DNA of 63,232 bases, taken from NCBI GenBank assembly GCA_050012475.1, contig JBEKHC010000015.1, positions 1 through 63,232 on the forward strand, read 5' to 3'. Made by a program: the position numbers. Positions 3,001-24,000 of this stretch are shown here, piece by piece. Numbering within the stretch: the first letter of the stretch is position 1; each line of letters starts with the position of its first letter. The stretch is from Candidatus Velthaea sp. (lineage in GTDB: Bacteria; Vulcanimicrobiota; Vulcanimicrobiia; Vulcanimicrobiales; Vulcanimicrobiaceae).

Positions 3001-6000
3001 TGAGTGGATCGTGGCCCCAATTCTTGAGGCTATCCGCCCAGTGGGTCGCATGCACGTCGCCGCTGGGCCGTTGCGCGAGATGCCGTTTGATAGAGCCGAC
3101 CACCCGGTGCATCGCACGCAGATCGGCATCGTTCCATATGCCTTTCTTTTTGCGTAAGATCTTGACGATGTGCCGGCCCGACGCGTGACCGGTCGATTCA
3201 CCGCCCTGCGGCGGCTTCGCGCCTACCTCACGCGACTGGTCGGCCTGCAGCCACGCTTCGAGCTCGTGCGGCGTCATGTTGACCAGCTGCGCGAAGGCCG
3301 CGGTGATGGGATCCTCAGCTAGAGCCGAAGCGCGCGTCGTCATTTCAAGACGTCTTGCCGCCTAGCGCGCGGCGCGAAACGCGCCGTTGCGCCGCACCGG
3401 CCGGCGGCCGCCCCGTTCTGTCACGCCGCTCGGCCGTCGGGTGCCTCGATGATGCCGGCGGGCTCGAGCACGATGTCGGTCGGAATCTCGGTATAGGCAA
3501 AGACGTCGATGTGGAAGCCGGTTTGCTCGAAAAATTCGGCCAGCATGGGCCGCAGCGCGGCGGTCGCAACGATCGCATGCGGACCGGGAACGGGTTCTTC
3601 GAGATAGCCGGCGATGCGCGTTCGCACGTGCATCGTCGTAACGGGATCGGGTGCCAAACCTCCGGCCGGGCTCCACATCCGGACGAGTTCACTCTCGAAC
3701 TGGGGGGCGAAGATCAGCGGCCGGATCCGGTGGATGCCGTCGCGGCGAAACTGCTGCGGAACGACGACGCGGCGCGCAGCCTCGGCAAGTTCGCGCGGAT
3801 CGCGCGAACCCGCTGCAGCGTCGAGAATCGTTTCGAAGACGGCGATGGGGTCACGCGGCCAAATGCGCTCCTTGAGCAGATGGGTGAAGACCCGGTGGGC
3901 CGCCGCGATCGGCAGGACGTCTCCGCCGATATCTTTGACCACCGACGGGACGCTCGCGCGCAGATGCTCGAGGAGCGTATGAAACTCCTGACGGCCGAGC
4001 AGTTCGGCGGCATGACGCCGGACGATTTCCGACAGATGTGAGCCGACAATCGAAATTGCGTCGAAGGTGAGCGCGCCGGCCTGCGTGGCGGTGTCGCGCT
4101 GAGCATAGTCGAGCCACTTCGCGTTCAAGCCGTACACGGGCTCGACGGTATCTTCGCCGGGAAGTCGAGCCAAAGTTGCCGGCCGGCCGACGGCCAGCAG
4201 CCGATCGAGCCGCACGATCCCTTCGCCGGCAACGCGGTCGCGAACCCGGATCGCGTAGGTGCGCGGATCGCGCACGCCGTCGTCGCGCAAGCGCACGCCG
4301 GGGATGACGATGCCCAATTCGGCAGCCAGCGCGCGCCGCACGTCGGCGACGCGATCCAGCAGTGCGTCGGCATTGGGCGGTGCGAGCAAGCCGTACAAAT
4401 CGCTGCCGACGTCGATCGACAGCGCATCGACGCCGACGAGCGCCAGCGCCATCTCGGGTCGCCGGATCGCGACCTTGCGGGCCTGCTCGCCAGCGGCGCT
4501 CGCGCGGGCGGCGATCCGCGCGTTGCGCCGTTGGGCGAAGTGCGCGCCGGCAAACGCGCACGCGCCGATCCCGATGAACAGCGGCGCGGGCAATGCCGGA
4601 ACGAGCCCGAGCAAGGTCACGAGCACGGCCGCCGAGCGCAGCACGTCCGGCCGGCCGATGAGCTGGCGCGCGAGATCGGTGCCCAGCGCGCCGTCGCCGG
4701 CTACCCGCGTGACCATCATCCCCATCGCCGTCGAGATCAGGAATGCCGGCAGTGTGGTCACGAGCGCGTTGCCGATCGACAGCAGCGCGAAGGTCGCGAA
4801 AGCATCGCCCGGCGAGAGCTCGTGATAGGCAATCCCGACGACGATTCCGCCGATCAGGTTGAGCGCCACGATCGCCAACGCGGCGATCGCGTCGCCCTTG
4901 ACGAACTTCCCGGCGCCGTCCATCGCGGCGTAGAAATCGGCCTCGCGCTGCACCCGGGCGCGCTTGCGGCGCGCGCCGTCGGCGTCGAGCACGCCGGCGT
5001 GCACGTCGGCATCGATCGCCATTTGCTTGCCAGGCATCGCGTCGAGCGTGAAGCGCGCGCAGACTTCGGCGACGCGCTGCGCGCCCGTCGCGATCACGAT
5101 GAATTGAATGATGATCAAAATCGCAAAGACGATCAACCCGACGACGATATTGCCGCGCACTACGAACTGCCCGAACGCCGGGATGATGGCGCCAACGCCG
5201 CCCTCGAGGTGCCCCTGCGTCAAGATCAAGCGCGTTGCGCTCACGTCGAGCGCCAGCCGGAACAGCGTCGCGAGCAAGAGCGACGGCGCGAAGGCGGAAA
5301 ACTCGAGCGGCTCCTCCACCCGCAGCGTCAGCAACAGCACCAGGGCAGAGCCGAAAATGTTGAGCGCCAGCAGGGCGTCGAGCATGACCGGCGGCAGCGG
5401 AACGATCAAAATCGCGACGATTCCCAGCACGCCGAAGGCAAACGCCGACGTCAACTTGCCGTTCATGCGAACACCCCTTCGCGAGCGAGCGCGGCGATGA
5501 CGCGGGCAACCGCTACGAACGTCGCCGTCGGGATCGTGCGGCCGGCCTCACCTTGCGCATACAGCGCGCGGGCAAGCGCGACGTTTTCGACGATCGGAAT
5601 GCGGTGCCGGCGCGCGATCGATTTTACGTTTTGCGCCGTTTCGTCGGCCGCGCGCACCAGAATCTCGGGCACGGCGATGCTCGGCGGCGCGTAGCGGACC
5701 GCGATCGCAATGTGCGTCGGATTGACGACCACGAACGACGCATCTTTGGTGCGCTCGATCGACCCGCGCACCAGCGTGCGGTGCAGCGTCTTGCGCCGTG
5801 CGCGAGCGTTGGGATCGCCATCGTTTTCTTTTTGATCGCGCCGCATTTCTTCGAACGACATCTTGAGTTCCCGCAGCCAGCGGCGGCGCACGAGCGCGTA
5901 GTCGACGACGGCGAAGCACGCACCGGCCGCGATCGCCGCCCAGCACGCGTGCTGCGCGGCATCCAACGCCAATGCGCCGAACGCGCCGGCACCGCTCAGG

Positions 6001-21000: not shown

Positions 21001-24000
21001 TTATTTCGCGACCGTGCGGAGTTCGCCCAAACGCGCGTGCACCGCGTTGAGGAGCGCTTCGGTAAAGATTGCGGCCTGGGCGATGCGCGCCATGCGCGGT
21101 TCGTCGACACCGTTGCCGCGCGCCGAGTGAGTAAGCGTCGTTCGGGCTGCCAACGCTGCCGAGCCGGTGGAGTTAACCGTTGCGAGTTCCATCGCTCCAC
21201 GGTAGCGGGCGGATATGAGCGGGACGTTACCGCGACGTGAGGAACCACGTTTGGTGCGACACGGTCGAAGCTTTCGACGGCAGCGGCCCCCCTCCACCAC
21301 CGCTGTCGTCGTCTCTCCTTGGTTCCGCGCAGCGCGGCGTGGCGCGCCGACGCCGGTTCGGCCGATCGTCCAATGAGCATGCCGGAAGCGCCGCAGGAAT
21401 CGGTCAAGATTCTTGCGGCGCTCCAGCGGGCGGCCCGGGCGAGCGGCGATACGCGACTGCTCGACGCGGCAACCGCCGTCGAGCGCGCGTACGATGCTTT
21501 GTCGCTCGAAAAGATGTCGCTCGACAGCCGGCTCGCTGCCTCCACGGCGCAGACCGAACGCGAGGTCCAAAAAGCGGCCACGATTGCCCGCGTCGCCGAG
21601 ACGGTCAATTCGTCGCTCGAACTCGACGTCGTGCTGCGCCGCGTCCTGGACATCGCCGTCGACGTGCTCGGCGCGCAACGCGGCTTCGTGATGATCGCGG
21701 ACGAACGCAGCGGAGCGCTCAACCTCGCGGCGATGCACGGACTGGATCGCGCCTCGCTCGATTCCGACGAGATGCGCCCCTCGCACACCGCCGTTCAGCG
21801 CGTGTTCGAATCCGGCGAAACGCTCGTCACGACCGACGCGCAAAGCGATCCCCGCTTCAACGCGCAACTTTCGGTGCGCTTGCTGAACCTGCGTTCGATC
21901 ATCTGCGTGCCGCTCACCAGCAAAGCGCGGCGAATCGGCGTCGTCTATTTGGACTCGCGCGTGACCCCGGGATTGTTCACGCCGCAAGATCCGAGTCTGT
22001 TGCTGGCGTTCGCGAATCAAGCGGCGCTGGCGATCGAGAATGCGCGTTTGTTCAACGATCAACGCGCGCAGCTGCGCGAGATCGTGTGGCTCGAAGAACT
22101 GCAAGCCAAAGTGCTGGCCTCGATCACCAACGGCGTCATTACCGTCGACGCCGGCGGAACGATTACCACGTTCAATGCCGCCGCCGGTGAAACGTTCGGC
22201 ATTCCGGCCGGTTCGATGACCGGACGACCGATCGCGGCGCTCGATGCCCTCGTGCCGCGCTTTTCGACGCTCATCGGGCAGGCCGAACTCTTCAGCAAGC
22301 CGCTCGAAGTCGACGCCATTCATCCCACCCGCGGGAACCTCACGCTCCAGGTCCGTATCGCGCCGCTCGAATTGGGCGAAAACAAAGGGCAAGGCGAACA
22401 AAGCGTCGCCATCGCGATCACCGATCTGACCGAACGCCGCGCGCTCGAGACGATGCACCGCACCGACATCGAACAGCGGCGGGCGATCGGCGCGGCCTTC
22501 TCGCGGTATTTGGCGCCGCACGTCGTGGAATCGCTGATGAAATCGCCGTCGGCCGTCGGCCTCGGCGGCGAACGGCAGATGGCGACGATTTTATTTGCCG
22601 ACATCCGTGATTTCACCAAGATGGCGGCGCGCATGGAAGCCGAGCGGGTCGTCGAGATTCTCAACCACTACTTCGAGGCGGCCGTCGCCGTGCTGTTCGA
22701 GAACGACGGACTGCTCGACAAGTTTTACGGCGACGGGCTGATGGCCGTGTTCGGACCGCCGCGCGTGCGCTCGGACGACGCGGCCCGCGCGCTGCGTTCC
22801 GCCGCGCGCCTGCATGAAGTGGTCCGCGAACTCGAACCGGTCATTCGCGAGCCGCTGCGGATCTCGGTCGGCTTGGCGACGGGCGAAGTGGTTGCCGGTC
22901 ACATCGGCAGCACGCGACGGCTCGACTACACGGTGATCGGCGATGCCGTCAACTTAGCTTCGCGCCTGCAGTCGGCCGCGCCGCCGAGCGCTACCTATTG
23001 CGACGAAACGACGTATCTGCGGTCCGGCTTGCACCTGCGCGGCGAACGCCTGCAGGCCAAGATCAAAGGCCGCGACGACCTCGTCACGGTCTACCGCTTA
23101 ACCTAAAACGAACACCCGCGCCGCGGGTGTTCGTTTCGACTGCGTCTTGCTTTGTTGGAGCGAAACGCTTAGCGCTTCGAGAACTGGAAGCGTTTGCGGG
23201 CCCGCTTGCGGCCGTACTTCTTGGATTCTTTCTCGCGCGGGTCACGCGTGAGCAAGCCGTTGCGGCGCAACGGCTCTCGCAGCGACTCGTCCATCTCGAG
23301 CAGGGCGCGCGCGATGCCGTGGCGGACCGCTCCGGCCTGGCCGGACACGCCGCCGCCTTCGCACTTCACGTCGACGTTGAAACGCGAGAGGCTTTGGGTG
23401 ACGTCGAGCGGCTGACGGACGATCTGGACCCAGCTTGCCCGCGGAAAATAGTCGTCGACGGTCTTCTTGTTGACCGTGATGACGCCTTGACCGAGGGTGA
23501 GCTTGACGCGGGCGACGGCCCGTTTGCGGCGGCCGGTGCCTTGAAAGATATCCGAAGTTTGCATGGGGTCCTAATTCAGCGGTGCGGGCTTTTGCGCCGC
23601 GTGGGGGTGAGTTTCGCCCGCATACACCGCGAGCCGGTTGAGCTGCACGTCCCGCATGCGGTTCGTCGGCAGCATCCCGCGGACGGCGCGTTCGATGAGC
23701 CGTTCGGGATAGCGCTCACGAACGTTTTGGGCCGTCTCCGTGCGCAAGCCGCCCGGGAAGCCCGAGTGGCGATAATAGACTTTCTGCTGCCATTTGTCGC
23801 CGCCCAGTTCGACTTTGCCGGCGTTGATGACCACGACATGGTCGCCGTTGTCGATATGCGGCGTCCAGGTCGGTTTCCGCTTCCCGGAGAGCGCCTGCGC
23901 GATCCGAACCGCCAACGTTCCCAGCCGGAGTCCGGCGGCGTCGACGATGTACCAATCGTGCTGCGTCTGAGCGGTCGTTTGAAAGTAGGTGCGCATGGCT

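Follow-up and report, generated by a model that had tools for sequence, protein, structure and literature searches.

A single origin from the flagellum is accepted for the injectisome, its early steps being inferred from one surviving side branch (passages of PMC3459982). Injectisomes, Hrp pili, and the T3SS* of Myxococcales are motorless export machines derived from the flagellum (PMC3459982, PMC12075869). A natural fusion of FliF to the middle domain of FliG has precedent in Chlamydia, a non-flagellated cell in which it belongs to a FlhA-FliF-FliI set (passages of PMC4768692), so the fusion type described here is not unprecedented. Flagellar export genes are also retained in non-swimming cells by Buchnera, as flagellar basal bodies (PMC8109811), and by Lysobacter, as remnants (PMC7688988).

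We examined a 63,232-nucleotide stretch of DNA (here, the window) from Candidatus Velthaea sp., whose class includes a cultured member (PMC9758169). The survey's finding had been a reduced flagellar export system at positions 3421 to 21192. Every gene it named was located in this span, here operon 1, all on the minus strand:

3421..5466, minus: flhA, export gate, 681 aa (FHIPEP 6e-193; FlhA trees)
5463..6485, minus: flhB, switch protein, NPTH cleavage loop intact (Bac_export_2 6e-72)
6482..7201, minus: fliR (Bac_export_1)
7198..7467, minus: fliQ (Bac_export_3)
7524..10397, minus: passengers bacteriophytochrome-GGDEF and haem oxygenase, absent here in relatives (Pfam, gene order)
10694..11599, minus: metF, a conserved passenger that survives machine deletion (MTHFR)
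11612..12271, minus: fliP, 219 aa (FliP 8e-72)
12598..12855, minus: fliN (FliMN_C 9e-25)
12855..13658, minus: fliM-like C-ring protein, diverged (FliMN_C only)
13655..14380, minus: mini-FlgE, 241 aa, hook D0/D1 without D2 (split FlgE profile match)
14377..14916, minus: probable FliK/SctP-type ruler, short, 179 aa (fold search, T3S4 domain)
14948..16573, minus: aspartyl protease, a frequent passenger, retained in 2 of 5 deletion genomes (Pfam, gene order)
16506..17090, minus: lytic transglycosylase of the operon (SLT 2.6e-32; same place in other lineages)
17074..18333, minus: fliI ATPase (ATP-synt_ab, T3SS_ATPase_C)
18330..18872, minus: fliH, shortened (FliH 5e-8)
18859..20343, minus: FliF-FliG_M fusion, 494 aa, without FliG_N or FliG_C (YscJ_FliF, YscJ_FliF_C, FliG_M)
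20347..20619, minus: fliE (FliE 1.3e-4)
20619..20999, minus: flgC-like proximal rod (Flg_bbr_C)
21001..21192, minus: flgB-like, 63 aa, first gene, leaderless -10-like box (position, conservation, paralogy)
23169..23996, minus: rpsI-rplM, fixed chromosomal landmark adjoining the operon (Pfam, gene order)

Four passengers thus lie within the operon span: the phytochrome-GGDEF protein, haem oxygenase, MetF, and the aspartyl protease. The remainder of the machine was found in a second operon on another contig (C57), which holds FlgF, FlgG, a 63-aa FlgJ-like protein with no Pfam match, a FliA-like sigma, and a 97-aa protein. The gene for this last protein follows the sigma and was considered as FlgM; it has no Pfam match and was set aside. 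A paralogous copy of the machine (C10:33986-55428) was confirmed and additionally carries FliJ and FliO. This copy is not a contaminant duplicate, since uvrC is single-copy and located on the same contig. FliJ was above the cut-off in just 1 of 5 genomes tested. The same genome was also said to encode a complete flagellum on contigs C42, C93, and C163. A canonical flagellum is indeed present; its completeness is not fully shown because canonical flhB (by tblastn) and FlgM were not found in an assembly that is 94% complete.

Judged by sequence, the export gate FlhAB-FliPQR, the ATPase FliHI, the MS ring, FliE, and the rod FlgBCFG are all present, with the 63-aa FlgB-like protein, which has no Pfam match, assigned by position and paralogy only. 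The Walker A motif GK[ST] is kept in 34/34 aligned FliI copies, and the FlhB cleavage loop reads NPxH in 16/16 aligned copies (NPTH in 12). The proposed single-chain FliF-FliG(M) fusion without a torque domain was borne out by its YscJ_FliF, YscJ_FliF_C, and FliG_M domains and by PDB profile comparison, in which FliG is matched over about residues 390-488 only. Its ring portion carries the C domain of FliF together with two membrane spans, which by homology makes the ring FliF type and not that of the SctJ/SctD inner rings.

The hook and ruler proteins are both reduced. The mini-FlgE matches the FlgE profile in two pieces with the middle skipped (1.2e-10), and matches to FlgF and FlgG are weaker. 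Whether the product of 14377..14916 is a FliK had been left open by the survey. Sequence search against the PDB gave no match; in a fold search, the best two matches were PscP and FliK-C (Foldseek E 0.022/0.031; Z 8.7/7.8 among 48,161 chains), which supports a FliK/SctP-type ruler. It has about 95 residues ahead of the T3S4 domain, and its 179 aa compare with 645 aa for the FliK of the same genome's own flagellum. Retention of both the FlhB switch loop and a ruler points to a late substrate.

To what extent is this machine kept, and with what company? The fusion is carried by 112 of 120 other genomes of the class, in agreement with the class-wide retention first claimed; the gene is in two pieces in 5 of the 112, and 8 of the 120 are without it. 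Most of these genomes, drawn from three families, have the machine intact, and a single copy at a housekeeping locus is the rule among class members. Flagellin above the cut-off was found in 36/120, leaving 76 of the 112 fusion carriers without it. FliG_C, the hook cap FlgD, and the P ring FlgI were each found in 0/5 unflagellated genomes. The stator domain MotB_plug was detected in 25/71 genomes of family f1, 0/9 of family f3, and none of the machine operons. Neither FlgK/FlgL, FliD, and FlgH nor any secretin or L/P ring was found within the machine operons read. Secretins are present in 5/5 genomes, all outside these operons, and one of them might be borrowed; with neither secretin nor L/P ring in the operons, no route across the outer membrane is evident, a point against the filament-building explanation given below. 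Taken together, the gene content indicates that this is very probably a working non-motile type III export machine, in line with the original reading of it as flagellum derived.

The survey had reported only weak canonical FliF hits in other classes. This is not supported: the phylum's other lineages possess a sister operon, without filament genes, in which FliF is unfused and FliG is full length, FliG_C included. The operon order is the same in 15 of 20 loci fetched from these lineages, and flagellin occurs in 21 of 69 of their genomes. FlhA of the fused and unfused forms makes one clade with an SH-aLRT support of 99, with and without long branches, in single-gene LG+G4 trees that included 3 and 2 SctV and 4 and 2 myxobacterial rows. 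For the first tree, 17 near-duplicate class rows (one of them carrying a wrong label in its record) and 23 outgroup rows were dropped; for the second, three long branches and further near-copies were dropped as well. Neither the flagella of the phylum nor the SctV of injectisomes falls within this clade, which branches among flagellar rather than SctV sequences. By these phylogenies and gene orders, the machine is not limited to the class; it is kept phylum-wide. The unfused sister form also suggests that the fusion arose independently of that in Chlamydia, a lineage with no sequence in the FlhA tree.

Compared with the bacterial flagellum, the machine shares FlhAB, FliPQR, FliHI, FliM/N, FliF, FliE, FlgBCFG, an FlgE-like protein, FliK, a FliA-like sigma, and flagellar gene order. 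It differs in lacking stator, FliG_C, FlgD, FlgI, flagellin, and the FlgE D2 domain, and in forming a separate clade that coexists with a true flagellum. With injectisomes, Hrp systems, and T3SS* it has in common a SctP/FliK-fold ruler, a lytic transglycosylase, and perhaps, if the candidate described below is one, an HrpA-like filament subunit, whereas its origin on the FlhA/SctV tree is separate. No secretin, SctD, or translocon of the injectisome kind was seen in the operons or scanned neighbours, and the Myxococcales T3SS* lacks FliF, FliE, FlgBCFG, and sigma-28 (passages of PMC3459982), all of which are kept here. The chlamydial fusion is about 330 aa, with few flagellar genes remaining (passages of PMC4768692), against 494 aa plus rod, ruler, and sigma. 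Buchnera and Lysobacter represent reduction of a sole flagellum in one lineage each, unlike a second system kept phylum-wide in free-living cells. Our literature search found no paper describing the machine; the supplements of PMC9259500 and PMC9758169, which were outside that search, may list its genes.

The machine had also been called filament-less. It lacks flagellin, but a conserved candidate for a filament subunit exists: a family of small helical proteins found in 116 of 120 class genomes. Its member in the source genome (C35:13484-13861), which has a 103-aa paralogue, is encoded in an operon with a second transglycosylase. This main pilin-like operon is located well away from the machine operons. 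The family is a candidate HrpA-like pilin by language-model features alone: the nearest named Atlas clusters of the class protein are HrpA_pilin (0.87), HrpE-like (0.83), and needle (0.83), and that of a small protein from the other lineages is HrpA_pilin (0.91; the family name on 24% of cluster members), scores of a height also reached by shuffled proteins, in anything from a few cases to a third of them. In Pfam, 0/27 members matched HrpA or needle families, and PDB and Foldseek searches gave no match.

The second copy, on C10, has small genes of like kind directly after flhA, as do 4/15 other-lineage operons. The class profile scored 13.5 and 13.0 bits on two second-copy genes, above 300/300 shuffles. 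The class and other-lineage proteins are weakly linked (hhalign probabilities of 5% and 3%; first match E 1.6), and the latter is predicted as one 76-residue helix (pLDDT 85) for which Foldseek, with no match, was uninformative. A 90-aa Ser-rich gene at C10:47503 was dropped as a pilin: 120 genomes gave a single chance match to it, and its own score did not exceed those of shuffles. On balance, we lean slightly towards the pilin-like protein being the machine's substrate.

Of 45 pilin-operon upstream sets, 19 have a sigma-28-like promoter pattern (0.5 on average and at most 3 after shuffling), as do 0/31, 0/17, and 0/21 early-gene upstream sets, counted as pattern matches and not by a weight-matrix scan, with weaker sites uncounted. 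The remaining 26 sets are without it, the source genome's own pilin operon among them, and in many genomes part of the pattern overlaps a divergent yceD promoter. There are 38 matches in family f3. In the source genome, the pattern precedes 12 of about 5,200 genes, five of which are comM (twice), comF, dprA, and recA, an enrichment for competence genes at P 1e-7 to 7e-11. In five other genomes, 5/21 matches precede comM, comF, dprA, or comEA, at 9-12 bases from the start. The putative promoter is thus common to the pilin-like operon and comM, comF, dprA, comEA, and recA, and is not that of the machine's own operons. Besides the machine's FliA-like sigma, 4/5 unflagellated genomes tested retain a canonical FliA-type one that could read this promoter; the one genome without it still has a variant site. 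A role for the machine within competence is only tentatively suggested. Competence-linked T6SS killing in Vibrio cholerae (PMC6783263) also uses a secretion machine with DNA uptake, a functional analogy only, as that machine is unrelated and the link here is a shared promoter pattern alone.

The explanation we marginally favour as a whole is an ancient flagellar basal-body duplicate, kept phylum-wide beside or without a swimming flagellum as a non-rotating machine whose late export substrate would be a pilin-like subunit, perhaps as part of a competence programme. Operons 1 and 2 would be transcribed early from leaderless housekeeping-type promoters, and the FliF-FliG_M ring would carry FliM/N as a sorting platform rather than a rotor. 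Rod and mini-FlgE may form a short conduit, with the very short ruler triggering the FlhB switch early. The HrpA-pilin-like protein and second transglycosylase would then be made from the sigma-28-type late promoter, and the protein exported to polymerise into a thin filament. Because comM, comF, dprA, comEA, and recA have this same promoter upstream, the machine is proposed to come on together with natural competence; its purpose would most likely be reaching or attacking neighbours, or handling DNA.

Such a machine may be a flagellum that became a secretion device along an evolutionary path of its own, probably building a thin pilus in place of the swimming tail. It would be a separate lineage changing in the same direction with its intermediates alive: stator and filament lost, hook trimmed, ruler shortened, and FliG kept first, then reduced to its middle domain and fused. 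Living intermediates make the order of events testable. The fullest version, a second independent flagellum-to-injectisome-like conversion with two preserved stages, an HrpA-like pilus on rod and mini-hook, and a flagellar sigma turned competence regulator, is a good deal less probable. If the promoter link is true, the involvement of a flagellar sigma or type III machine in natural competence would be a novelty, and there would be a function for a machine that, in this abundant soil phylum, is auto-annotated as a broken flagellum.

The alternative that survives best, possible if doubtful, is an export machine with no appendage, ending in the periplasm or outer membrane and delivering proteins there or serving as a checkpoint that releases sigma; the small helical proteins would be cargo, or competence proteins unrelated to it, and would form no pilus. 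The operons' lack of L/P ring, secretin, and hook cap fits this account, as do the very short ruler and the secretin-less Myxo system as precedent (passages of PMC3459982). So does the persistence of pilin-like genes after machine loss. In five genomes operon 1 has been cleanly deleted, leaving stubs of flhA, SLT, or fliP; all five keep the pilin-like gene and four the sigma, which shows that the coupling between the parts is not strict and counts against our favoured explanation. What tells against it is the kept FlhB loop and ruler, with the late substrate they imply, and the occurrence of small helical genes directly after flhA in two independent settings; moreover, none of the proteins found was shown to be FlgM-like.

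Contact-dependent delivery of effectors or toxins, directed at microbes or protists, is improbable; the competence-type promoter would then be borrowed or incidental. Second copies in the source genome and in genome G041 sit with an OmpR-type regulator and several low-complexity or hydrophobic ORFs, orphan FliF and FlhA C-domain paralogues are numerous in other lineages, and a marine family of the phylum has been proposed to be predatory (passages of PMC9259500). Against this stand the single copy at a housekeeping locus in most class members and the scan of neighbour genes, where translocon, chaperone, and effector families had no match. Effector delivery overlaps our favoured pilin-exporting machine if killing serves DNA uptake.

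That the locus is a decaying, currently functionless remnant of a second flagellum is very improbable. Several proteins are shortened and fast-evolving, and the absent and split fusions noted above would fit decay, as would the five losses, each a recent deletion and none an assembly gap; catalytic motifs and gene order are nevertheless conserved, in three families of the class and, unfused, beyond it. A divergent motile or rotating organelle with unrecognised stator and filament is likewise very improbable. It could draw on the full FliG of the unfused form; for the class form, which entirely lacks FliG_C and in which most carriers have no MotB, it is all but refuted. Weak flagellin matches in unflagellated genomes did not reveal a hidden flagellin: of the 10 matches, 5 were extracted, and all of these were efflux adaptor-like. 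These efflux adaptor-like genes sit between TetR-like and MFS-like genes.

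Reading the genes of the window, C57 and C10 bore out the survey's finding of a reduced export cluster, with a second operon on C57 and a paralogous set on C10, in this genome of 5.36 Mb and 94% completeness, of which the window is contig C15.

Flagellum-related gene sets of the source genome
Window 3421-21192, minus strand: operon 1 (the machine), first half: flgB-like, flgC, fliE, fliF-G, fliH, fliI, SLT, (aspartyl protease), fliK-like, mini-flgE
Window 3421-21192, minus strand: operon 1, second half: fliM-like, fliN, fliP, (metF, haem oxygenase, phytochrome-GGDEF), fliQ, fliR, flhB, flhA
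C57: operon 2: flgF, flgG, 63-aa FlgJ-like gene, FliA-like sigma, 97-aa gene of no assigned family
C10: second copy, a full paralogous set, FliJ and FliO included
C42, C93, C163: canonical flagellum

The canonical flagellum, earlier called complete, has its genes on these three contigs, but its own flhB and its FlgM were not found in the genome at its 94% completeness. The 63-aa gene of operon 2 has no Pfam match and owes its FlgJ-like label to position and likeness. Within the export operon and on its strand, a bacteriophytochrome-diguanylate cyclase and a haem oxygenase are inserted (window 7524-10397), an insertion not seen in relatives. The window also encodes a protein of 158 aa (56698-57174), rich in Ser and Gln and with a run of His, whose N terminus resembles a type III export signal. 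The second copy may sit in a genomic island; on its flank (C10:55633-75120) lie a gene for a lanthipeptide synthetase of the LanM type and conjugation-like genes resembling VirB/VirD4.

YscJ_FliF, YscJ_FliF_C and FliG_M domains all lie on the 494-aa ring protein of operon 1, and a profile of this fusion (35 rows) matches FliG structures in the middle domain only. The 241-aa mini-hook protein matches FlgE in two pieces (1.2e-10) with the D2 region skipped, and FlgF and FlgG more weakly. The FliK identity of the 179-aa gene, previously left open, is backed by fold search: its C-terminal domain is predicted confidently and comes closest to the T3S4 domain of PscP and that of FliK. Scores are modest, with the expected family in the top ranks, both by Foldseek (E 0.022 and 0.031, respectively) and against 48,161 chains (PscP, Z 8.7, rmsd 2.6 over 84 residues; FliK, Z 7.8, rmsd 2.5 over 80). 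Only about 95 residues (range 85-114 in 21 rows) precede this domain, compared with about 510 in the FliK of the canonical flagellum, which points to a conduit that would be short. FliI keeps its Walker A motif in 34 of 34 copies, and FlhB keeps NPxH in 16 of 16.

Among genomes of the class Vulcanimicrobiia, which as kin are not independent samples, the fusion was matched in 112 of 120 others at least 90% complete, including 18/18 in the distant family f3; in five of these carriers the gene is split. Flagellin passed the cut-off in 36 of the 120, every one a fusion carrier, leaving 76 carriers without flagellin over the cut-off. MotB was present in 25 of 71 genomes of family f1 and 0 of 9 of f3, and FliG_C, FlgD and FlgI, each searched in five unflagellated genomes, were missing from all five. 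These tallies take in three unpublished genomes (G014, G034 and G116), on which the conclusions do not depend. Beside rplM-rpsI, operon 1 has a constant gene order in those f1 and f2 loci whose length allows it to be judged (35 loci read); in f3 the operon is broken into two parts. Operon 2 is conserved among the loci read for it. Eight class genomes are fusion-less, and since all five of those examined carry a true deletion with gene stubs, the machine is dispensable.

Two genomes carry unusual arrangements. The 1.9-Mb genome G041 has two copies of the system (L141:13356-17579 and L142) and MotB, with flagellin unmatched, and several low-complexity or hydrophobic ORFs of no assigned family adjoin its second sigma gene. 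G122 holds a third reduced cluster on its contig C52 (L149 and L182), with a canonical-type FlhA, FlgD, FlgE, L and P rings and a FliG cut to 168 aa; neither flagellin nor MotB was found in that genome.

A profile search covered 1.84 billion representatives plus 151 phylum genomes, and in the rows it listed for genomes, full-length fusions were confined to this class. The weaker matches outside it are not all ordinary flagella. FlhA was found in 30 of 30 outside-class genomes searched and flagellin in 21 of 69. Where other classes had been credited with weak canonical FliF hits only, 15 of 20 stretches instead share one operon of the same type with unfused FliF and full-length FliG (flgB flgC fliE fliF fliG fliH fliI fliJ SLT fliK mini-flgE fliM fliN fliO-like fliP fliQ fliR flhB flhA), the front end of two being missing at the stretch edge. 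Four of the others hold an orphan flhA and one another cluster. In the shared operon FliK is about 300 aa and the mini-FlgE about 271 aa; flgD and stator genes are absent from the 15 stretches. From source names and taxonomy, we take these lineages to be Xenobia.

In an FlhA tree of 97 rows, the class form, the second copies and the outside operon form a single clade (SH-aLRT 99) separate from the phylum's canonical FlhA, SctV rows and myxobacterial rows; one record labelled as a proteobacterium falls inside f3. With long branches removed, a tree of 56 rows again gave the clade a support of 99; both are quick single-gene trees of uneven composition. We read this sequence evidence as one ancient duplicate, in which fusion and shortening would have come later, in this class. 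The earlier interpretation was right in part but too narrow; the system is phylum-wide rather than class-limited.

The outside lineages hold further relatives of these genes. Up to 14 FHIPEP matches occur per outside-class genome (G129, G135, G158, G164, G168, G179 and others), many covering only the FlhA cytoplasmic domain in long open frames, besides orphan full-length flhA. Orphan fliF paralogues have no flagellar neighbours (L145, L147, L151-L153, L157-L161), some outside operons carry a second, FliG_N+M-only gene (L148:8357-9223), and a conserved 150-aa gene with no Pfam match lies divergent from flgB (L166:19510-19965, L170:19115-19579).

Four of the 15 outside operons have, as first or second gene after flhA, one that encodes a Gln-rich protein of 79-113 aa; this family has 352 relatives, some of them in tandem, and is modeled as one helix. 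Its profile weakly matched (E 1.6) a 125-aa protein of the source genome (C35:13484-13861), whose gene adjoins that of a 103-aa paralogue. This pilin-like protein is present in 116 of 120 class genomes, and in most of 30 loci read a second lytic transglycosylase gene, truncated in the source genome, precedes it. The small-protein families had no matches in Pfam, PDB or Foldseek. As leads, the ESM Atlas placed the class protein nearest to the named clusters HrpA_pilin (0.87), HrpE-like and needle, and the outside protein nearest to HrpA_pilin (0.91, with that family on 24% of the members), HrpE and SctF. Aligning the two families with hhalign gave probabilities of 5% and 3%, although the ungapped C-terminal register agrees; profile scores against the outside family had medians of 4.8 and 8.2, versus -0.9 and 2.3 for reversed controls. 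The 89-aa gene directly 3' of the C10 flhA is the genome's top non-self profile match (13.5 bits, E 0.024; beating 300 of 300 shuffles), and a small gene within the second copy of G041 reached 13.0 bits. Retention of the pilin-like gene in all five machine-deletion genomes counts against coupling. The protein is a candidate filament subunit of the machine.

Among the early genes, 18 of 31 upstream sets for flgB and 9 of 17 for flgF contain a leaderless -10-like box; these are raw counts, not set against shuffled sequence. A two-box pattern that resembles sigma-28 promoters (boxes of 4 and then 6 bases, 15-16 bases apart) precedes the pilin-like operon in 19 of 45 sets, where shuffling gave a mean of 0.5, and no early-gene set has it. 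Because the pattern was derived from these same pilin-operon sets, the independent tests are a scan of the whole source genome and the other genomes. The scan found it at 12 of about 5,200 called genes: comM twice, comF, dprA, recA, the rpsF operon, a RecQ-like gene, a ligase-like gene, a gene of no assigned family within the C10 copy, and three more, named by likeness, with Pfam for recA and for homologues elsewhere. For five of the 12 to fall in one gene class of 15-60 members, a class picked afterwards, P is 7e-11 to 1e-7. Five other genomes gave 21 exact matches, below the count of the reversed control, of which five lie 9-12 bases before comM, comF, dprA or comEA and one before the pilin-like gene. 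Three f3 genomes have a match on the dprA strand, 4.3-5.5 kb before that gene. Either the system's own FliA-like sigma or the canonical FliA-type sigma may read the pattern: four of five unflagellated genomes retain the latter, and in the fifth, which lacks it, a variant pattern site remains.

The gene layout copies the flagellar hierarchy, with machine and sigma early and the filament gene late, and this copying leads us to propose a type III machine that does not rotate, has a short rod and hook, would export the pilin-like subunit and would be co-induced with competence. By membership it lies outside both the motile flagellum and the injectisome clade, yet on our reading it is predicted to work like an early injectisome. 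The joint reading, an independent flagellum-to-injectisome-like conversion with an HrpA-like pilus, driven together with DNA-uptake genes by a flagellar sigma, is tentative, and we think it rather unlikely to hold in full. The literature searched yielded no description of this system. Published work offers precedents in the Chlamydia FliF-FliG_M fusion (PMC4768692), the Myxo system (PMC3459982; PMC12075869), Buchnera flagellar basal bodies (PMC8109811), Lysobacter (PMC7688988) and Vibrio killing linked to competence (PMC6783263). The cultured class member, Vulcanimicrobium alpinum WC8-2, is reported to show pili, assigned to type IV, and no flagella (PMC9758169).

The two comM copies (C196:573 and C68:1675) share an identical promoter site and reflect duplication or bin redundancy. 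In flagellin-less genomes, the canonical FliA-type sigma (L290:4643-5473 and relatives) stands at 68-86% identity. A conserved protein of about 410 aa with no Pfam match, absent from the source genome, is encoded mostly near secDF-flhA (L185:7796-9076 and seven other loci); it may carry a clostripain-like motif, and in G016 the two-box pattern lies upstream of its gene.
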